Of a stretch of DNA of 64,000 nt, positions 6,504-51,903 are shown in pieces. The stretch comes from an uncultured Chloroflexia bacterium (GTDB lineage Bacteria > Chloroflexota > Anaerolineae > Anaerolineales > UBA4823), in assembly GCA_963822175.1 (NCBI GenBank), contig CAWGGJ010000003.1, positions 198,802 through 262,801 on the forward strand, read 5' to 3'. Under the pieces are notes generated by a model that was not told where the DNA came from, made no database searches, and worked only from the letters and a program-made list of their open reading frames with translations. The translations under genes and the position numbers were made by a program. Numbering within the stretch: the stretch's first letter is position 1; every line of letters begins with the position of its first letter.

Positions 6504-7199
6504 ATGGATTGGTCTCCACCAAAACGCCCGGCAGTTTATGCCGAAAAATCCCTGATATTAGCCATCCTAAATGACGATTATCCCCCAGGCTCTGTTCTTC
6601 CCGCAGAACGGGAGTTAGCAATAAAGCTTGGTGTTACTCGCTCTACATTACGGGAAGCACTTCAACGTTTAAGCCGTGATGGATGGTTAACCATTCAACA
6701 AGGGAAGCCCACCCGGGTAAATGATTACTGGCGGGAAGGTGGTTTGAATGTATTGAATGCCTTGGTCCAATACTCAGATCGATTACCAGCCTCTTTTGTT
6801 CCAAACTTGCTCCAAGTACGCCTGGTACTGGCCCCATACTATGCCAGGCTGGCAGTGGAACAATCTCCAACTCAAGTAACAGAATGTCTACAGGATTCAG
6901 ATGCCTTGAATGATATTCCCGAGGAGTTTGCATCTTTCGATTGGCGCTTGCACCATACGATGACAATCGCTAGTGGAAATCCAATCTTTACCTTGATTTT
7001 AAATGGCTTTGCTGGATTCTACGAACAAATGGCTACGATTTACTTTTCGCAATCGATAGCCCGTCAAAGCTCAAGAGATTTTTACCATTTTCTTGCTGAA
7101 TCCATCAAACAAAATGATACTCATGGGGTCGAAATTATCACCCGATCGATGATGTCGGAGAGTATCAAGATTTGGGAATCTATTGCAGGAGGGGAATGA
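6504..7199 (+). CDS. fadR: FadR-type (GntR family) acyl-CoA-responsive transcription factor
   Basis: Collinear similarity to E. coli FadR over the whole length. Example: [57 protein letters not shown] versus [57 protein letters not shown]. Also [17 protein letters not shown] versus SGNPIYGLILNGMKGLY. Start set at the ATG at 6504, 5 nt after AGGTGA. The track's GTG at 6495 lies inside the ribosome-binding site. Confidence 0.85.
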   Translation: [231 protein letters not shown]

Positions 7200-8836: not shown

Positions 8837-10585
8837 ATGTGGGATTACGGATGGCGAACAAAAATCTGGCAATCTATTGATGGCCCCTGGGATATTCTGA
8901 TCATCGGCGGCGGTATCACAGGTGCTGGGATCCTGCGCGAAGCCACCCGCCTAGGACTGCATGCTCTACTGGTTGATCAGCGTGATTTCGCCTGGGGGAC
9001 TTCCAGCCGCTCCTCAAAGTTAGTTCACGGGGGATTACGATACCTAAAAGAAGGTAAGATAATGCTTACCCGTAATTCTGTACACGAGAGGAAGCAGCTG
9101 CTTCAAGAAGGTCCAGGATTGATCGATCCCCTGGGTTTTCTGTTGACCGTGTACAAAGGTGATTTTCCGGGCAGGTGGGCATATGCAATGGGTCTTACCG
9201 TGTACGACCTGCTTGCACTGCGGTGGGACCATGACTACTATTCACCGGAAGATTTCCGCCTGCTGGCGCCTCACATCAGTCAGGATGATCTGCTGGGTGG
9301 ATTTCGTTATGGAGACGCCCAAACGGATGATGCCCGTTTGACCTTGCGAGTGATCCTTGAAGCAGTTGCAGATGGCGCAACTGCCATCAATTACGTCAAA
9401 GCAGATAAATTACTCTTCGAAGGTGATCTTGTCAATGGTGTAGAACTCAACGATATCTTAACCGGTCAGAAGACTGAAGCATATGCCAGGGTAGTGATAA
9501 ATGCCACGGGTGCCTGGGCTGACCATCTACGAGAACAAACCGGAGGTACCCCACACATCCGCCCATTACGAGGCAGCCATCTCATCTTTCCCAGCTGGCG
9601 ATTGCCAGTTGCCCAGGCAGTAAGTTTTTTGCATCCATTTGACCATCGTCCTGTTTTTATCTTTCCCTGGGAAGGCGTGACCCTGGTAGGGACAACAGAT
9701 GTGGATCATGGTGATCCGCTTGATGTTGAACCAAAAATCAGCCCTGTTGAGGTGTCTTACCTGATGGCAGCAGTGGATTATCAATTCCCATCCCAGGCAA
9801 TTGGGCTGGAGGATGTTATATCAACATATTCTGGGGTCAGGCCAGTGATCGGTTGTGGAAAAACCGATCCTTCTGAGGAATCACGGGACCATGTCATTTG
9901 GGAAGAAAGAGGATTAATCACTGTAACTGGTGGAAAACTCACAACCTTTCGTTTGATTGCATTGGATGTGCTTGCAGCAGTGCGTCACAAAATCCCGCAG
10001 ATGCCCGAACCGGATCATCATATGCCTGTGTTGAACCAGGTAAATCACCAGATAAATGGTTGTAATGATGTTACCGATACTTGTAGAAAAAGGTTATTAG
10101 GTCGTTTAGGTGCTGATGCCCAATTGATGGTGAAAGCGGCACAGCCCGGTGAAATGGAACCTATTCCTGGGACTAATTATCTCTGGGCGGAGATACGTTG
10201 GGCTGCACATGCTGAAGGTATTTGCCATTTGGACGACCTTCTCCTCCGACGTACCAGGCTTGGGCTTATCTTACCTCTCGCAGCAGAAGCGATCATGCCG
10301 GTGGTTAAAAATATCTGCCTATCTGAATTGCATTGGAGTGAAAATCAATGGCAGGAGGAATTAATAGCATATCATACTACATGGGAAAACAGTTATAGCC
10401 TTCCCCTTGTTGAAACCATCCCCGATTGGAAGGAAAAGCTGGTGGAAGCAAAATACAATCAAAGATTACGCATTCCTTTACATCGAAAAAAAATGGTTCG
10501 CCAATCCAGCCTGATCGTAATAATAATCCTGTTATGCACTGCGTTGATTGCTCTCCTCTGGAAACGTTCCAACCATCCCAGGTGA
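8837..10585 (+). CDS. glpD: FAD-dependent glycerol-3-phosphate dehydrogenase with a C-terminal membrane anchor
   Basis: DILIIGGGITGAGI dinucleotide fold, SSRSSKLVHGGLRYL, GGKLTTFR. The last ~30 aa form a hydrophobic helix (LIVIIILLCTALIALLW). Confidence 0.85.
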   Translation: MWDYGWRTKIWQSIDGPWDILIIGGGITGAGILREATRLGLHALLVDQRDFAWGTSSRSSKLVHGGLRYLKEGKIMLTRNSVHERKQLLQEGPGLIDPLGFLLTVYKGDFPGRWAYAMGLTVYDLLALRWDHDYYSPEDFRLLAPHISQDDLLGGFRYGDAQTDDARLTLRVILEAVADGATAINYVKADKLLFEGDLVNGVELNDILTGQKTEAYARVVINATGAWADHLREQTGGTPHIRPLRGSHLIFPSWRLPVAQAVSFLHPFDHRPVFIFPWEGVTLVGTTDVDHGDPLDVEPKISPVEVSYLMAAVDYQFPSQAIGLEDVISTYSGVRPVIGCGKTDPSEESRDHVIWEERGLITVTGGKLTTFRLIALDVLAAVRHKIPQMPEPDHHMPVLNQVNHQINGCNDVTDTCRKRLLGRLGADAQLMVKAAQPGEMEPIPGTNYLWAEIRWAAHAEGICHLDDLLLRRTRLGLILPLAAEAIMPVVKNICLSELHWSENQWQEELIAYHTTWENSYSLPLVETIPDWKEKLVEAKYNQRLRIPLHRKKMVRQSSLIVIIILLCTALIALLWKRSNHPR

Positions 10586-27626: not shown

Positions 27627-29381
27627 GTGAATAAGAAAAAAATTCGTGCCCAAATGCAGTGGCACTCAATGGATATACATTTACACACACCAGCATCAAG
27701 TGATTTCCAACAACCCGATGTGAAATACCTTGAGGTACTTCAACGCGCCGAGGCACGTGGTTTGGATATCATCGCATTTACCGACCATAATACAGTTGCT
27801 GGCTATAAAAAAATGCAGGACGAGATTCACCAGCTCGAATTATTGGAGCGCCTCAATCGTATCCTACCAGAAGAGCAAAATCGCTTGCGTGAATACAGGC
27901 GTCTCTTTGAAAAACTACTGATCCTGCCAGGATTTGAGTTTACCGCCACATTTGGGTTTCACATCATCGGTCTTTTCCCACCAGAAACCCCTATCCGTGA
28001 GATCGAATATCTTTTGATCGATCTGAATATTCCCACAGACCAGCTCGATCTCGGTTCAGCCCTTGTGGGCGCAACCTCCGATGTCTTGAATGCCTATCGT
28101 TTGATCGATGAGGCCGGGGGTTTGGTGATCGCTGCACATGCCAACTCAAACAATGGTGTTGCCATGAGAGGCTTTCCCATCGGCGGTCAAACCAAAATTG
28201 CCTACACCCAGGATCCGCATTTACATGCTCTCGAAGTTACCGACCTCGACCAGCGAGGTGCTCGGACCACCGCCACTTTCTTCAGTGGTACAAAACCAGA
28301 ATACCCTCGCCGTATGCATTGCATTCAAGGCTCCGATGCCCACAGGTTGACCACTGACCCGGTGCGCAAGAAGAACCCAGGGATCGGTGATCGAGTCACC
28401 GAAGTGCTGTTACCGGAAGTCACCTTTGAAGAGCTCCGGGACTTATTCTTAAGTAATGATTTTGCCCGCACCCGCCCGCGCCATCATATTGCCCAGCCTG
28501 CATTTGATTTCATCCAAACTGCAAGAGAAGAAGGGGCTAATATCATTCAAGACTTCCATGAGAGTATGACTGTTCGGGGTGGAAAATTATTCGCCATCAT
28601 TGCTGACGTGTGTGCCTTTGCCAACGCAAATGGTGGCACCCTTTATATTGGATTGAACGTTGATCCAAAAAAGCCCGTGATTGGGGTGCCTAACCCCGAG
28701 CAATCCATCACCCAGCTGGATAAGGAGATCAGCACGCGTATCACTCCTCCGTTGCAGTGTTCGATCGATGTTCATGAAACCAACGGTAAAAAGATCCTTC
28801 GGGTGCTCATCCCTCGCGGGGATGATCCTCCGTACGCTGTGGATGATAATAAAGTTTATGTCCGCGACGAAGCGGAAACAGGTCTGGCTGTGCGCGACGA
28901 AATCGTCAGCCTTGTTCTTCGTTCCAGTACGACCCAGAGCACATCAACGCCAAAATTGACCAGGGAAAAACCTTCGGTTGAAGCAGAGTTGCCCCAAATA
29001 GAAGTTACTGTTGAGAGAGATGGTGAATCCCCTCCACGTACCGGGGTTGAAGTTGTCAAGGTGGATGAGCGTGAAGGTGTATCCTATTACACCATGCGAG
29101 ACCTACGCAACGGGAACGAGGTAAAAAATGTCACCCGCGTTTCTGCCCGACGCCTCTGGCATTATGCCATCACAGAATTCGACCAGCTGCCTGCAGATCT
29201 TTCAAAAGTAAAAATCCAATGGCAGGGTAATGTTGGCCTTCTCGCAACTCAACGGCAAGGTAAAAATGTCCGTTACAATCTCGTTCAGCGTACTTCCAAG
29301 GGTTATCGCCTGTATTTTGGTGTGACAGAGGACGGGGTACATGGTCGCTGGAAATCACTGGTTGGTGGCGATGAGGAATGA
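27627..29381 (+). CDS. PHP-domain phosphoesterase fused to an AlbA_2 (Schlafen-like) nucleic-acid-binding domain
   Basis: PHP motifs [31 protein letters not shown] in the N-terminal ~250 aa. An AlbA_2-like core ([23 protein letters not shown]...[14 protein letters not shown]) lies near aa 320-410. The last ~150 aa are unassigned. Confidence 0.65.
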
Positions 29382-35654: not shown

Positions 35655-36002
35655 ATGGCTGGGAAACACGGAATGCGACATTACAGCAAGGAAACCAAAC
35701 TACTCGCTGTGCAGATGTACCTCGAACTAGGAAAGAGTCAGGCACAAATAGCACAAGAGTTGGGTTTACCGCGGAAAGAGCTGGTTGAGCAATGGGTACA
35801 TCGTTATCGTCACGAAGGGGAAATCGGCTTCTGTAAGCCGATTGGCAGACCGCGAAAATCCCCACAGTCTCAGCAAGCCTATATTGCTCGACTAGAAATG
35901 GAAAATGCTCTGCTAAAAAAATACCACACCGAGTTGCGCAAAGCTATGCTCGCGAGGCGCGATATCGGGTTATTGAACACTACCGAGGAGTATACCCCGT
36001 GA
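35655..36002 (+). CDS. IS3 transposase OrfA (helix-turn-helix plus leucine zipper)
   Basis: [30 protein letters not shown]... and the coiled segment [15 protein letters not shown]. Confidence 0.85.
35915..35921 (+). promoter_or_regulatory. Programmed -1 ribosomal frameshift heptamer A_AAA_AAA
   Basis: Seven A read as CTA AAA AAA TAC in the orfA frame. The -1 (orfB) frame is open from 35837 onward. The fusion reads ...[49 protein letters not shown]. Confidence 0.6.
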
Positions 36003-36808
36003 ATGGGATGTGTAACTTCTTTGGGATCTCGCGAGCTGCCTACTATGCTTGGTGTCAGCGTATCAACCGGCCCGATCCAGACCGTGAACGCAAGCACTAT
36101 GTCTTAGAAGCATATCAGGCATCCCGAAAGAGGTATGGTTATCGACGTATCAGCTTGTGGTTGCGGAAGAAACGGTCAGTAATTATCAACCATAAGGCAG
36201 TGCTGCGGCTCATGAACCGCCTAGGCATTCATTCGGTTGCCCGTCAGCGCAAACCATTCCAGAAAATGAGCCGATTACCCATCTATCACCGCTACGAAAA
36301 TGTATTGCTTCGCAATTTCAACGCCAGCCGACCGAACCAAAAGTGGGTCACCGACATTACCTATGTGGCCACAGGACAGGGATTCGCATATCTGGCGGTG
36401 ATCAAGGACCTGTTTGACGGTTTCATTGTTGCCCACAAGCTCAGCCAGGACAATTCAGTTGCCCTGGTGACCCATACCCTCCAGCAGGCCTTTCAGAAAG
36501 AAATGGCCACTGATGGATTGATCCTCCACAGTGACCAAGGACATCAATACACCTCACACGCGTATCACGTCCTGACTCAACAGTATAACATCATCCCTTC
36601 CATGTCACGAAGGGGTAACTGTTGGGATAATGCGCCTATGGAGAACTTCTTTAGTCATCTCAAAGAAGAAGCGCTCCGTCATATTAATATCACCTCTTTT
36701 GAGGAGGCCAAGAATGTAGTTGACGAATATATTAACTTTTTCAATTATGAACGGTTACAATTGAAAACAAAACAGACACCCTACGAAGTAAGGTGTCTGT
36801 CCAGTTGA
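35999..36808 (+). CDS. IS3 transposase OrfB (DDE/rve integrase core), probably expressed as an OrfAB fusion
   Basis: [10 protein letters not shown] (first D), [10 protein letters not shown] (second D), [18 protein letters not shown] (E). Lies in the -1 frame relative to orfA. Confidence 0.85.
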
Positions 36809-36880: not shown

Positions 36881-36993
36881 GCACGCTCCGGGCAAGCTAC
36901 CCGGCGGCACCCGGAATATCCTCCTTACTGCTGCTTCTTCTCAGACCTGACAGGGTTCAAAGGGTTCCGCCGCGCCGGACCCACCCGGAGCGC
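36881..36993 (-). ncRNA. ffs: Signal recognition particle RNA (small, 4.5S type)
   Basis: The minus strand reads ...CCCUGUCAGGUCU-GAGA-AGAAGCAGCAGUAAGG..., matching the universal domain IV CAGGUCAGGUCC-GGAA-GGAAGCAGCCAAGG. A GNRA tetraloop and compensatory closing pairs are present. A closing helix GCGCUCCGGG / CCCGGAGCGU and an internal CCGGCG / CGCCGG helix give a ~113-nt hairpin. Confidence 0.8.
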
Positions 36994-37334: not shown

Positions 37335-37468
37335 CGAGCTATCTCAAATCCTCGAGAAATTGTTTCTTTCGATTAGTTTATCACATCACAGCCGGCAAAT
37401 AAAGAAAAAACCCACCGAAAATTACAGCGGGTGGATTTTACCTGGTTATGGGAAGGGTTTTCCATCGA

Positions 37469-38053
37469 TTATGGAAATGGGCGTCCGATACTAAGCACCT
37501 GTAGTAGCTCAGGCTCGAGCTCTCGATAGATCTCGTCAGGTTGAACGTCCAGCGCATCCAGGGTCTTACTGAAGAAACTGCGTGCAGTTACTGCGGTGAG
37601 GACATTGAGGATATCTTCATCAGTAAGGCCATGACCACGCAATTCATCCATGTCTTCCTGCTCAACCCTTCCGGGATGATTGATAACTTTTTGGGCGAAG
37701 GCCATTAATGCCACTTCCTCTGCAGAGAGACCCGCATTATGAAAATCTTTGATAATCGCCTGGATTTGCTCCACATTGAAGAAATTTTTACGAAGCAACG
37801 CTCCGTGGGCAAGCATTCAATAGGTGCAGTCTAGTGCCATCGCAGCTGCAAAGGTGATCAGCTCGTAACGGCGAAGCCTCATCTTTGAGCGTACTGCCCC
37901 GATCAGTTTTAGCCAGCCCTGGTATATTTCCGGGTTCAGGCTGAAGGCCTGGGTAAAATTCGCAATATAACCCCTTTTTTCCTGGTCATCCTTGTATTGG
38001 TCCAGGACCAATCCATTTGCTTCATCCAATGAAATTGTTTTGATCAACGCCAT
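37469..38053 (-). CDS. AhpD/carboxymuconolactone-decarboxylase-family protein with in-frame TGA (candidate selenocysteine) at 37817-37819
   Basis: The two track ORFs (37817-38053 and 37469-37816) are contiguous and in the same frame. The junction reads AAAMALDCTY-TGA-MLAHGALLRK. The family motif is C-x-Y-C-x-x-x-H-G, so the TGA sits at the second Cys. Confidence 0.65.
37790..37806 (-). promoter_or_regulatory. Candidate SECIS-like hairpin downstream of the in-frame UGA
   Basis: In the mRNA sense: UGA-AUGCUUGCCC-ACGGAGC-GUU-GCUUCGU. This is a 7-bp stem starting 11 nt after the UGA, with a G-containing apical loop. An alternative longer-range pairing, CCAC/GUGG plus UUGC/GCAA, is also possible. 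Confidence 0.35.
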
Positions 38054-38227
38054 AATCTTTATTCCTCTTTCAATACGTATTTTATCAGCTGATAATGTCT
38101 TTCCACCTAAATTAGACCTTTATTGTATCATTATTACATGAGAATATTCTGAGGATTTTTGCCGATCAGAATTGGTACTACGTAGAAGAAAAATCGCGGT
38201 CTTGTAAAATCAACTCCATTGCCAATG

Positions 38228-38256
38228 AAAAAAAACGCCTGCATATCTGCAGACGT
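38228..38256 (-). terminator. Intrinsic terminator immediately after the tRNA-Ser 3' fragment (probably the original tRNA-Ser terminator)
   Basis: The minus strand reads ACGTCTGCA-GATA-TGCAGGCGT followed by eight T. It starts 5 nt after the CCA end of the fragment at 38261. Confidence 0.6.
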
Positions 38257-38260
38257 TTCC

Positions 38261-38321
38261 TGGCGGAGAGAGAGGGATTTGAACCCTCGTTCCCTTGCGG
38301 GAAACACGCTTTCCAGCCGTG
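38261..38321 (-). repeat. Direct repeat: duplicated 3' half of tRNA-Ser (att-like)
   Basis: 38261-38310 is 50/50 identical to 39326-39375, the 3' 50 nt of tRNA-Ser(GGA). Similarity continues for another ~11 nt with 2 mismatches and is then lost. No 5' acceptor or D arm is present. Confidence 0.85.
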
Positions 38322-38438: not shown

Positions 38439-38954
38439 CTACAATCCACGATCTTTGTTCAACCACTCACGGTTATTCCAACTGACCGGACATCCACCAA
38501 CTCTATTGAAGGAAAGCTCAGGATTATTGGATTGCACAAGGACCATCAAGCGTCGTCCAAAGAGTAGATGATATCGTGCTTGAAAGGCAAGGATGTCTAG
38601 CACTATTTCTGCGTCATTAACTGTCATTGGAACAAATCGATCATATTGATAAAAGACAAGAACACGGCCGCTATTTTCTGGAATCTCAAGATCGTAAAGA
38701 CAATCGCTCAAAGCATCCAAATTTCGTCCAAAATAAGCAGGAAATGCAAGCTGTGTGGAGATAGCATCGTAAAAATCATCATCATTCAGCCAATCTTTGC
38801 AATCTATCGGGTCAATTTGGTAATCATGGTCACGAAGCCAGGATAAGTCATCCTCAAGAATTTCTCTGCGATTATAAAGAGTAATCGGACCATTCTGTAG
38901 CAACCGCCAATCAAGTTCATGCATACGAGCATCGATATATTGAAAGATTGCCAT
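38439..38954 (-). CDS. Barstar-like ribonuclease-inhibitor / immunity protein (orphan)
   Basis: AFPAYFGRNLDALSDCLYDLEIP...VLVFYQYDRF aligns with the barstar core [29 protein letters not shown]. Carries an extra ~60-aa N-terminal segment. Confidence 0.6.
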   Translation of the reverse strand: MAIFQYIDARMHELDWRLLQNGPITLYNRREILEDDLSWLRDHDYQIDPIDCKDWLNDDDFYDAISTQLAFPAYFGRNLDALSDCLYDLEIPENSGRVLVFYQYDRFVPMTVNDAEIVLDILAFQARYHLLFGRRLMVLVQSNNPELSFNRVGGCPVSWNNREWLNKDRGL

Positions 38955-39325
38955 ATATTTCCTCCTGAATCAAGACTATATTAGATAATGAAAAGACAAT
39001 AATCAAGAAATGATTAATTATATAAAGATTAATCGTTAAATACAGGGTGTATTAATAAAATTATATCGTTAAATAAATTTCGATGCTCAGATGTTGAAGA
39101 TTTGCTAGTAATTTCTTTGCTCTTGACGTCTGTATACTTCGAATGTTAAAATAATCTTGCTGATTGTTAAAGAATTACATGACGCACAATTACTCTAAAT
39201 TAGGTCACACGCTCTTTTAAATTTTTATCAAAGGTAATTCCACGGTTACCTTATATGTGTGGGGTGTTTCGGGGTGGGTATAATAGGTATATGAAGAAAG
39301 CCCACTCTGGTGAATGGGCATCTCC

Positions 39326-39415
39326 TGGCGGAGAGAGAGGGATTTGAACCCTCGTTCCCTTGCGGGAAACACGCTCTCCAGGCGTGCGCGCTAGGCCAGA
39401 CTACGCGATCTCTCC
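39326..39415 (-). tRNA. tRNA-Ser (anticodon GGA), type II with a long variable arm
   Basis: Reverse complement: GGAGAGA..GCACGC-CTGGAGA-GCGTG-TTTCCCGCAAGGGAAC-GAGGG-TTCAAAT-CCCTC-TCTCTCC-G-CCA. Length 90 nt. Confidence 0.9.
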
Positions 39416-48823: not shown

Positions 48824-50002
48824 ATGGATATTGAACAGCTACAGAAGCGGATTCAATGGATTGAAGAGGACCGCCGAAAAGAAAAAGATGCGATCGCCCT
48901 GCTTGAGAATAAGTTGACAACCTTGGAGGGCAACCTTACAAAAGTTTTGCAACAAGGTAAGGATTTAAGTGGTGAAATCACACGCCTTTCCGCAATCATT
49001 GTCCGCATGGATCAATACGACCAGGCTTTAGCCAGAGCACGGGTCGAGACCAAGCAAACCATCGACGACCTTGATAAGACGGTTAAGCTTCGCTTTGATG
49101 AATTTGAAAAAGTTCGTCGAGCTGAAATCCAATCCATTGATATCAAGATTCTCGATTTACAAAAACAGCTCGAAATTATCCCAAAATTGGATAAAAATAT
49201 ACAGTCACGCGTTGAAATTGAAATTGCAATTCGACGATCCGTGGATGAGCTGCGCAGTAAAATCGATGCGGTTCGGATCGAAGAAGAAGAGTACACCCGA
49301 ACAGTACGCCTGCTTGAAGATGGACGTCGTCAGGATGCAAAGCGGATAGTGGATTTGCAAGGTGAAGAAAATGCTCTAAGAAAGCGAGTGGATGATCAGA
49401 GAGGCCAGACAGAATTATTCAACACGAACTTGAGAAAATTGGAAACCCGCTTAAATGAGCTGATTACGGTTGAAGATGAACGCAAAGATGTGATGACTAA
49501 TTTCCTTAATAAGCAGGCAGTTACCCAGGTTGAACGCGAGCGAACCTGGAAGGAATGGCAGGCTCGCTTTGATACGATTGAAAAACAAGCAGTGGATATC
49601 GAGGCTCAGCTTGTCGTCCTAGACACCACTCACCGGGATGTGAAACGTACTCAAACAACTTTAGAGGAATTGACCCAAAAGATTGAACGGCGGATCACAG
49701 AAATCACCGAAATTCAGCGTCTCTCAGAAGACCGGTTCAGGCAGGAATGGGTTACATTCAAAGGAGATGACCAGAAGCGTTGGACAAATTACACTCTTTC
49801 ACAGGAAGAGCAGCGCAATGAGGCAACTCGCCAATACGATAAACTGACTGAACAAGCCACACACTATGAAGATGAGCTGCAAGAAGTGAAAGATCTGCTC
49901 CAACAAGCAAACGAATTGGTTGAAAAACGTCTTCAAGCCATCCTGGCCATGGCACATGACTGGGTTACTACATATGAACGTACCGTGAGGCGGACACGCT
50001 AA
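48824..50002 (+). CDS. Coiled-coil protein of unknown function
   Basis: 392 aa, highly charged (E/K/R/Q/L-rich) with heptad-like periodicity throughout. No membrane helix. Confidence 0.5.
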   Translation: MDIEQLQKRIQWIEEDRRKEKDAIALLENKLTTLEGNLTKVLQQGKDLSGEITRLSAIIVRMDQYDQALARARVETKQTIDDLDKTVKLRFDEFEKVRRAEIQSIDIKILDLQKQLEIIPKLDKNIQSRVEIEIAIRRSVDELRSKIDAVRIEEEEYTRTVRLLEDGRRQDAKRIVDLQGEENALRKRVDDQRGQTELFNTNLRKLETRLNELITVEDERKDVMTNFLNKQAVTQVERERTWKEWQARFDTIEKQAVDIEAQLVVLDTTHRDVKRTQTTLEELTQKIERRITEITEIQRLSEDRFRQEWVTFKGDDQKRWTNYTLSQEEQRNEATRQYDKLTEQATHYEDELQEVKDLLQQANELVEKRLQAILAMAHDWVTTYERTVRRTR

Positions 50003-50007
50003 GGCTT

Positions 50008-51903
50008 ATGCATGTTATCGGCACTGCCGGGCACGTTGATCACGGAAAATCCACCCTCGTCCAGGCATTAACGGGTACCCATCCAGATCGCTTAAAAGAA
50101 GAGCGTGAGAGGGAGATGACGATTGACTTGGGTTTTGCCTGGTTGACTCTCCCTTCTGGAGAGGAGGTCGGTATTGTTGACGTTCCTGGGCATCGTGATT
50201 TCATCGAAAATATGCTTGCCGGTATCGGAGGGATAGATGCTGTATTATTTGTCATCGCAGCCGATGAAGGCATCATGCCTCAAACAAAAGAACATCTGGC
50301 CATTTTGGATATTCTGCAAGTGCAGGGTGGCGTCATTGCTCTTACAAAAATTGATCTCATCGATGATCCTGATTGGCTCGAGTTGATTGAAGAAGATATT
50401 CGCAGTGCATTAATCGGTACGATCCTGGAAAACAGACCCATCATTCGCCTCTCTTCGCGCACAGGTCAGGGTATCCCTGAATTGTTAAAATCCTTAAGCG
50501 ATTGCCTGGCTGATCGTCCGCCAAGGCTTGATCTAGGTCGCCCGCGACTTCCCATTGATCGTGTATTTACCATGTCGGGGTTTGGTACTGTAGTCACCGG
50601 TACCCTATCTGACGGGAGCTTTCACACAGGGGACGACGTGGAAATTCTACCATCCAGGTTGCGTACCCGTATTCGTGGTTTGCAAACGCATCGCCGAAAA
50701 GAAGACATAGCCATCCCAGGCAGCCGAACGGCTGTCAATATTTCTGGTGTAAATGTAGATCAGGTGAAACGGGGTGATGTAATTGCTTATCCTGGCAGTT
50801 ATCAATCCAGTCAGCGCATCGATGTTCGTTTTCGTCTTCTTGGTGATGTCGTTCACCCATTGAAGCATAGCACCCCGGTAAAATTATTCCTTGGTGCAGC
50901 GGAGATCTTATCAAGAGTGCGTTTATTGGGAAGTGATGAACTCCTCCCTGGTGAAGAAGGTTGGTTGCAGCTTGAGCTTGATCAACCTATCGTGGCCATA
51001 CGGGGAGATCGCTACATTCTACGTAGACCCTCACCTGGAGAGACTCTTGGTGGTGGAATTGTAGTTGATCCACAACCCAAGCGTCGACACAAACGTTTTT
51101 CAGCCGAGGTGCTCAATAATTTAGAAACACTTGAGCGTGGTACACCTGCAGAGATCCTATTACAGGCACTAATGACCCTGAGAGTGGCAACAATACAAGA
51201 CGTGATTGTTCGATCAAATCTTGACGTAAAATCAGGCGAAGATATTGCGAAAGAATTGGTTTCAACCGGACAAATTATTGTTTTGGAGAACGGCGATCAA
51301 GCGTCAATCTCACCACTTGCATTGGTAACATCGAATGCATATTGGGAACAGCTCCAACACCAGGTTTTACTAGAGGTGGATGGATACCATAAAAACTTCC
51401 CATTGCGGCGGGGGATGTCACGCGAAGAGTTAAAATCGCGCCTAAAATTTTCCTCCCGTCTCAACAATGCTGTCCTGAGAAGAATGGTTTCTTCTGGAGA
51501 ATTGGTAGAAGCTGGTTCACTGGTCCATCGTGCCGGGTACACAATCCAATTTACCTCACAGCAACAAAGGATGATCAACGGTTTACTGGCCCGCTTTGCC
51601 TCCTCCCCATTCTCTCCTCCAACAATAAAAGAATGTTCAACAGATGTGGGAGAGAATATTTACTCTGCTATGGTGGAGCTTGGATTATTGATTCCCATTC
51701 CCCCTGATGTGGTCTTCCGCAAGGAGGACTATGACATGATGCTGTCTGAAATAATTCGCCTGTTGAAATCCAGGGGAACGATCACAGCCGGGGAGGTACG
51801 TGACCATTTCAATACCAGCCGGCGGTATGTGCTTGCATTATTGGAGCACCTCGATGCGAAAGGAATTACTGTTCGTGAAGGTGACCTGCGCCGTTTAAAA
51901 TAA
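50008..51903 (+). CDS. selB: Selenocysteine-specific translation elongation factor SelB
   Basis: N-terminus IGTAGHVDHGKSTLVQALTGTHPDRLKEEREREMTIDLGF and DVPGHRDFIENMLAG match E. coli SelB almost position by position. Four C-terminal winged-helix repeats end in ITAGEVRDHFNTSRRYVLALLEHLDAKGITVREGDLRRL, the SECIS-binding module. Confidence 0.9.
   Translation: MHVIGTAGHVDHGKSTLVQALTGTHPDRLKEEREREMTIDLGFAWLTLPSGEEVGIVDVPGHRDFIENMLAGIGGIDAVLFVIAADEGIMPQTKEHLAILDILQVQGGVIALTKIDLIDDPDWLELIEEDIRSALIGTILENRPIIRLSSRTGQGIPELLKSLSDCLADRPPRLDLGRPRLPIDRVFTMSGFGTVVTGTLSDGSFHTGDDVEILPSRLRTRIRGLQTHRRKEDIAIPGSRTAVNISGVNVDQVKRGDVIAYPGSYQSSQRIDVRFRLLGDVVHPLKHSTPVKLFLGAAEILSRVRLLGSDELLPGEEGWLQLELDQPIVAIRGDRYILRRPSPGETLGGGIVVDPQPKRRHKRFSAEVLNNLETLERGTPAEILLQALMTLRVATIQDVIVRSNLDVKSGEDIAKELVSTGQIIVLENGDQASISPLALVTSNAYWEQLQHQVLLEVDGYHKNFPLRRGMSREELKSRLKFSSRLNNAVLRRMVSSGELVEAGSLVHRAGYTIQFTSQQQRMINGLLARFASSPFSPPTIKECSTDVGENIYSAMVELGLLIPIPPDVVFRKEDYDMMLSEIIRLLKSRGTITAGEVRDHFNTSRRYVLALLEHLDAKGITVREGDLRRLK

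Follow-up and report, generated by a model that had tools for sequence, protein, structure and literature searches.

Proteins of the AhpD-like family with a CxxU motif, in which selenocysteine (Sec) stands at the second Cys of CxxC, were recognised as a new family of selenoproteins in data from the Sargasso Sea, where COG2128 contributed 27 sequences (PMC1088965; Zhang, Fomenko & Gladyshev 2005). In the GOS data such proteins ranked with the most abundant families, "AhpD-like 1" comprising 299 sequences (PMC2398784; Zhang & Gladyshev 2008). A table in a 2026 review lists the "AhpD-like protein, TIGR01926, CxxU" (PMC13188914), and the BSepDB database has a page on the AhpD-like family (PMC13326102). 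The bacterial SECIS element is described as a stem-loop shortly downstream of the UGA, with a G in a small apical loop (PMC1088965).

The active site has been described in two Cys-containing proteins. The relay residues are Glu118/Cys130/His132/Cys133/His137 in Mycobacterium tuberculosis AhpD and Glu36/Cys48/Tyr50/Cys51/His55 in PA0269 (PMC3141380). In the M. tuberculosis protein, Cys133, at the bottom of the active-site cleft, cross-links to Cys61 of AhpC, and Cys130 is partly buried (PMC6626918).

The gene described here is found on the minus strand, at 38053..37469, of a 64-kb stretch of DNA that was analysed as a whole and is termed the window. It has in common with the published AhpD-like family the TIGR01926 assignment, the CxxU motif with predicted Sec at the second Cys, the presence of Cys homologues and a downstream hairpin with a G in the loop; the likeness is one of model and motif and not a residue-by-residue comparison. 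The published examples are mainly marine metagenome reads, whereas the lineage of the window gene relates to soil and sediment metagenome-assembled genomes (MAGs) of Anaerolineae (Chloroflexota). The novelty implied by the first-pass annotation does not hold, as the family had already been described (PMC1088965, PMC2398784, PMC13188914); the window gene is a sound but unremarkable addition to a selenoprotein family known since 2005. A literature search returned no paper specific to the selenoproteins of Anaerolineae. The lineage context may therefore be under-described, and what the locus adds in this respect is incremental.

Reading frame and protein family

When the minus strand is read from 38053 to 37469, a single frame of 194 codons is found, which is opened by an ATG (38053-38051) and closed by a TAA (37469-37471). 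The sole break is an in-frame TGA (37817-37819), which stands between ...FAAAMALDCTY and MLAHGALLRK.... The list of open reading frames presents this frame as two exactly abutting entries, one of 78 amino acids (38053..37817, ending in ...LDCTY) and one of 115 amino acids (37816..37469, starting with MLAHGALLRK). The first-pass annotation had described the two as contiguous and separated by the TGA only, and the minus-strand reading bears this out, the joined product having 194 residues. A Shine-Dalgarno-like AGAGGA (38063..38068, minus strand), read directly from the sequence, lies 9 nt 5′ of the ATG; on inspection, no comparable motif was seen ahead of the internal ATG at 37816. An intrinsic-terminator-like hairpin followed by a T-run (37410..37432, minus strand) is situated about 37 nt past the TAA. 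With a ribosome-binding site before the first ATG, none before the internal one and a terminator-like hairpin after the TAA, the unit 38053..37469 looks like one monocistronic gene. No other convincing TGA-split gene was found in the 64-kb window, the remaining cases being non-coding frames or ordinary adjacent genes.

The joined product was scored against family models with Cys placed at the TGA position. It reaches 93 bits with NCBIfam TIGR01926, "peroxidase-related enzyme" (cutoff 81.8, residues 4-158), 45 bits with the Pfam CMD model PF02627 (cutoff 23) and 29.2 bits with TIGR00778, the AhpD core domain (cutoff 27.8). The separate halves score 16.1 and 16.8 bits with PF02627, both below the cutoff, in agreement with the earlier statement that neither half is a complete CMD domain. 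With TIGR00777, the model for AhpD sensu stricto (the AhpC-reducing adaptor), the score is 29.6 bits against a cutoff of 191.95; the protein, a single-domain member, of about 190 amino acids, of the TIGR01926 subfamily, is thus not an AhpD equivalog. No ahpC or peroxiredoxin-like gene is adjacent to it in the window.

A search of protein sequences gave 1,251 homologues; the 120 highest-ranking are all single chains of 193-235 amino acids, with 59-87% identity. In an alignment of these 120 the TGA column is Cys in 116 sequences and "W" in four, and C76, Y78, A82 and H83 are invariant; a further alignment of 26 sequences (A1) has E64, C76, Y78 and H83 invariant. The TGA, predicted to be the Sec codon U79 of the motif C76-T-Y-U79 (37817..37819, minus strand), had been placed on the second Cys of C-x-Y-C-x-x-x-H-G, and the Cys column upholds that placement. 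The segment E64 ... C76-T-Y78-U79-M-L-A-H83 (37805..37864, minus strand) displays the relay pattern of AhpD-like proteins, E-x11-C-x-Y-C/U-x3-H. The match to TIGR00777, in which residues 61-102 of the query lie on model positions 115-156, puts E64, C76, U79 and H83 on Glu118, Cys130, Cys133 and His137 of M. tuberculosis AhpD. Tyr78 matches Tyr50 of PA0269, whereas M. tuberculosis AhpD has His132 at that place; at the nucleophile position the mycobacterial protein has Cys and the window protein a predicted Sec. Two AhpD-like relatives of solved structure, 2oyo (E = 1.2e-15) and 6k40 (E = 1.7e-14), were related by sequence similarity only, the matches being unambiguous at that level; their CxYC motifs align to the same columns, with the second Cys on the TGA column. 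M. tuberculosis AhpD, PA0269, 6k40 and 2oyo all have the sequence signature of the CMD/AhpD helical domain in common with the window protein.

Orthologues and the downstream hairpin

A scan of one genome per GTDB species yielded 80 loci, mostly in MAGs of Anaerolineae/Chloroflexota. Codons were counted in those loci that carry C-x-Y-[C/*]-x-x-A-H-G, with the window and metagenome contigs included. The Sec-position codon is TGA in 31 (the window among them) and TGC or TGT in 26, so both states are present at this column; orthologues are never found as two independently started genes. Chance does not account for the TGA, which recurs at the identical codon, codon 79, in 30 further loci of independent genomic or metagenomic origin. 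Sec and Cys forms are intermingled (at least eight changes by Fitch parsimony on a neighbour-joining tree), and they can be close: one TGA form (L031) and one TGC form (L015) have 91% protein identity. The closest relative of the window gene among the loci found, L086, has TGT; its identity to the window gene is 87% at the nucleotide level and likewise at the protein level. It also has an R88H change that removes one base pair of the hairpin described below, and because this change breaks the hairpin, the TGT of L086 looks like a derived state.

The four homologues with "W" at the TGA column (P0002, P0024, P0070 and P0072) originate from four different JGI metagenome samples and belong with loci L001-L005. 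Their DNA has TGA at this codon, and the genes do not translate to the listed proteins under table 11. The "W" is accordingly an artefact that gene calling produced on short contigs.

Several individual loci show peculiarities. In a MAG labelled Candidatus Saccharimonadales (L068, from position 10235 onwards), the motif of a TGA form is followed by one inserted codon; a selenoprotein in a Saccharimonadales bin would be unusual and may reflect a binning error. The frame of L057 is broken ahead of the TGA, around position 7119 (LLPPPWRLECTY*), which suggests a frameshift or an assembly error. L051 comes, as a second contig, from the MAG that also holds L006; the two have the motif-region sequence in common, and the upstream part of L051 is out of register in the alignment.

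The predicted SECIS-like hairpin of the window gene, ACGGAGC-GUU-GCUUCGU, is 17 nt long (37790..37806, minus strand) and lies within the codons of H83-G-A-L-L-R88. It starts at the 11th nucleotide after the TGA. The first-pass annotation had pointed to a 7-bp hairpin with a G-containing loop at this place, and folding confirmed it: the stem is of 7 bp and the 3-nt loop begins with G. A 63-nt segment has a minimum free energy of -15.1 kcal/mol (z = -2.07 relative to shuffles). The 7-bp stem, the GUU loop and the 10-nt spacer correspond to the published description of bacterial SECIS elements. Rfam gave no SECIS-type match in the region of the AhpD-like gene.

An equivalent hairpin was found in all 29 non-redundant TGA forms, and in 28 of these it is in identical register; in the remaining one, L068, the inserted codon widens the loop and the CGGAGC/GCUCCG stem is intact. 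Most of the Cys forms are without this hairpin. The consensus of the Sec forms is a stem of 6-7 bp, (A)CGGAGC-G[U/G]U-GCUCCG(U), after a spacer of 10 nt. Over a 27-nt segment the mean folding energy is -9.8 kcal/mol in the 29 Sec forms versus -4.9 kcal/mol in 26 Cys forms (Mann-Whitney p = 5e-10, the sequences being taken as independent of phylogeny). Stem pairs 2-7 are paired in every one of the 28 fixed-register Sec forms, where the only variation consists of G-C to G-U (two sequences, including the window) and A-U to G-U (three sequences). Among the Cys forms, only 46% of sequences form pair 4, 46% pair 5 and 31% pair 7. In the window a G-U wobble takes the place of the G-C pair of most Sec forms, and with -7.8 kcal/mol, compared with about -10, the window hairpin is the weakest of the Sec set, tied only with L003.

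The codons that encode the hairpin are strongly conserved in the Sec forms. At each of codons 83-87 (H-G-A-L-L), one codon accounts for 92-100% of these sequences, the mean over the whole gene being 62%; no such peak is seen in Cys forms, with 50% in these codons versus 56% gene-wide. Relatedness does not account for this, since nucleotide identity between Sec forms across the gene is on average only 72%, with a minimum of 63%. No double compensatory change in the stem was found among the Sec forms, so that the predicted hairpin is supported by conservation at synonymous sites and not by covariation. At codon 86, NUG is found in 28 of the 29 Sec forms and in seven of the 26 Cys forms (Fisher p = 6e-8), and it appears that the putative RNA element allows only Leu or Val as residue 86.

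The best-known SECIS element for comparison is that of fdhF of Escherichia coli, in which the minimal functional element is said to be a 17-nt upper stem-loop located 11 nt from the UGA (reportedly Liu et al., 1998). The window hairpin is like this element in its location within coding sequence, its size of 17 nt, its spacing of about 11 nt and the presence of G-U in the apical loop, but it is unlike it in that the loop of the window clade is just 3 nt (GUU or GGU) and has no evident bulged U. It is conceivable, but on balance doubtful, that the Anaerolineae AhpD-like clade uses an unusually minimal SECIS of 17 nt which is set within the codons of the catalytic helix (H-G-A-[L/V]-L-R) and dictates residue 86. 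The features that define such an element would be the stem of 6-7 bp, the 3-nt loop G[U/G]U and the restriction of residue 86, through NUG, to Leu or Val and never Ile.

Decoding machinery and genomic surroundings

About 12 kb from the AhpD-like gene, on the plus strand at 50008..51903, the window encodes the selenocysteine-specific elongation factor SelB. The product scores 332.9 bits with TIGR00475 (cutoff 242.25), with residues 3-631 on model positions 2-580 of 581, and this full-length match substantiates the earlier description of the locus as a bona fide selB. To our knowledge selB has no role outside Sec decoding, and for this reason an intact copy is strong, although indirect, evidence of the Sec-decoding trait, as judged from gene content. 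The selB gene follows, after a gap of 5 nt, a gene for a 392-amino-acid coiled-coil protein with weak SMC-like matches, the two together spanning 48824-51903 (plus strand); it is not adjacent to selA or to a tRNA-Sec gene.

Neither selA nor selD was found among the 24 large open reading frames scanned in the 64-kb window, and ARAGORN and Rfam gave only tRNA-Arg and tRNA-Ser in the window and no tRNA-Sec. Likewise, no tRNA-Sec was detected near 20 Sec-form loci with flanks of up to 10 kb on each side, and tblastn with the window SelB against all orthologue loci revealed no neighbouring selB. A tRNA-like translation of an open reading frame at 38227-38320 was considered as a hidden tRNA-Sec and rejected, as what lies there is the 3′ part of tRNA-Ser(GGA), duplicated over 64 nt. 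TGA ends 12 of the 36 large open reading frames of the window; it is therefore an ordinary stop codon elsewhere in the window and is not reassigned, and a reading under genetic code 4 or 25 was rejected on this ground.

The duplicated tRNA sequence is part of a wider arrangement upstream of the AhpD-like gene. The tRNA-Ser(GGA) gene is at 39326-39415 (minus strand), and a 64-nt direct repeat that is 97% identical between its copies (38258-38321 and 39323-39386) duplicates its 3′ part. The repeat copies bound a segment of 1,065 bp, in which the sole sizeable open reading frame (38439-38954, minus strand) encodes a Barstar (barnase-inhibitor) domain (PF01337, 67.8 bits). At L006, a MAG locus syntenic with the window, a full tRNA-Ser and a partial copy of 55 nt bound a different cargo, consisting of a 323-amino-acid open reading frame, aldo/keto-reductase-like by eye, and one of 176 amino acids. 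On the contig L001, about 245 nt separate tRNA-Ser from the AhpD-like gene, which it directly precedes. The tRNA-Ser gene looks like an integration hotspot with variable mini-islands, with no integrase in sight.

Just downstream of the AhpD-like gene is a bacterial small SRP RNA (36887-36986, minus strand; RF00169, 61.7 bits), and the order of tRNA-Ser, AhpD-like gene and SRP-RNA-containing region is also found in L001. An IS3-type insertion sequence (35655-36808, plus strand) adjoins the SRP RNA gene; its orfA (35655-36002), with an HTH transposase N-terminus, overlaps its orfB (35999-36808), which has an rve integrase core. Farther away, a 584-amino-acid open reading frame (27627-29381, plus strand) displays sub-threshold N-terminal matches to a TrlF-family AAA-like ATPase (82 bits, cutoff 350) and to the anti-phage protein Ppl. 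No neighbour is conserved across the orthologue loci, only L006 being syntenic with the window, and gene neighbourhood consequently offers no guilt-by-association clue to a substrate or partner.

Readings of the locus and their meaning

The locus 38053..37469 is very probably a single AhpD-like selenoprotein gene whose UGA79 is recoded to Sec. The family models, the Cys/TGA column, the Sec-specific hairpin and selB all support the earlier proposal of an AhpD/CMD-family selenoprotein split by open reading frame calling. It is proposed that the gene encodes a 194-residue thiol/selenol oxidoreductase of the AhpD-like type (TIGR01926, CMD fold). SelB carrying Sec-tRNA(Sec) and GTP would be recruited by the 17-nt mRNA hairpin beyond the 10-nt spacer and would deliver Sec at UGA79, whereupon the ribosome would continue into the C-terminal 115 residues. 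The redox centre would then be C76-x-Y-U79-x3-H83, with E64 and H83 as a putative proton relay. By analogy with M. tuberculosis AhpD, in which Cys133 attacks the oxidised peroxiredoxin, Sec79 would occupy the position of the attacking nucleophile and may act as such, and Cys76 would be the resolving residue, the two forming a selenenylsulfide.

Other explanations of the TGA are to be weighed against a recoded codon. A pseudogene, or an assembly or base-call error, would require one substitution only, from TGT or TGC to TGA, with truncation at residue 78; the TGT of L086, the closest relative found, is just such a substitution away, and the window hairpin is the weakest of the Sec forms. An accident of this kind is nevertheless improbable. 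The window carries the full signature of the Sec forms, CAC-GGA-GCG-TTG-CTT-CGT, which is generally absent from Cys forms, and the identical TGA occurs in the 30 other loci. The 115 codons downstream are intact, with 24 synonymous versus 15 non-synonymous codon differences from L086; selB is retained, and L086 itself, with its R88H change, looks like the derived partner of the pair.

That the TGA is read through in some other way, by near-cognate insertion of Trp or Cys or under a reassigned code, might seem to be suggested by the Trp that JGI gene callers gave at this codon in four orthologues. Those calls are the artefact noted above, in which the table 11 translation is mismatched; TGA terminates a third of the large open reading frames as in the standard code, the TGA column is that of the redox Cys, and a SelB-type hairpin is accompanied by selB itself. 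Such read-through has very little probability. It is still harder to credit that the 78- and 115-amino-acid open reading frames are two genuinely separate genes, a reading with next to no probability, which arises from the ATG directly after the TGA, on account of which callers report two entries. That Met is M80 of a single-chain family and is conserved in 109 of the best 120 homologues; the internal ATG lacks a Shine-Dalgarno motif, neither half passes the CMD model, and the Cys-form homologues among the best 120 are all single proteins of 193-235 amino acids.

A recoded UGA79 being the preferred reading, the immediate consequence is one of annotation: the two hypothetical open reading frames should be merged into one selenoprotein coding sequence, with a transl_except for Sec at 37817-37819. 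Public data contain wrong calls of the AhpD-like Sec gene, which is either broken into two or shown with "W" at the Sec position, and selenoproteins can thus hide as Trp-containing proteins in protein databases. As the principle and the family are already established, the value of the locus lies in this annotation and in a clean comparative data set of Sec and Cys forms. The many close Sec/Cys orthologue pairs, such as L031 and L015, are useful for the question of why Sec is used over Cys. Should the reading of the hairpin as a minimal SECIS be true, the family would offer a natural series of matched Sec/Cys enzyme pairs, with at least eight Sec/Cys flips among species; and if the SelB of Chloroflexota recognises the tri-loop hairpin, this would be a compact and portable SECIS variant. 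The gene would also be a clean example of an mRNA structure that constrains protein sequence. If Sec is indeed inserted at UGA79, as the evidence leads us to infer, an uncultured Anaerolineae-type genome decodes UGA as selenocysteine.
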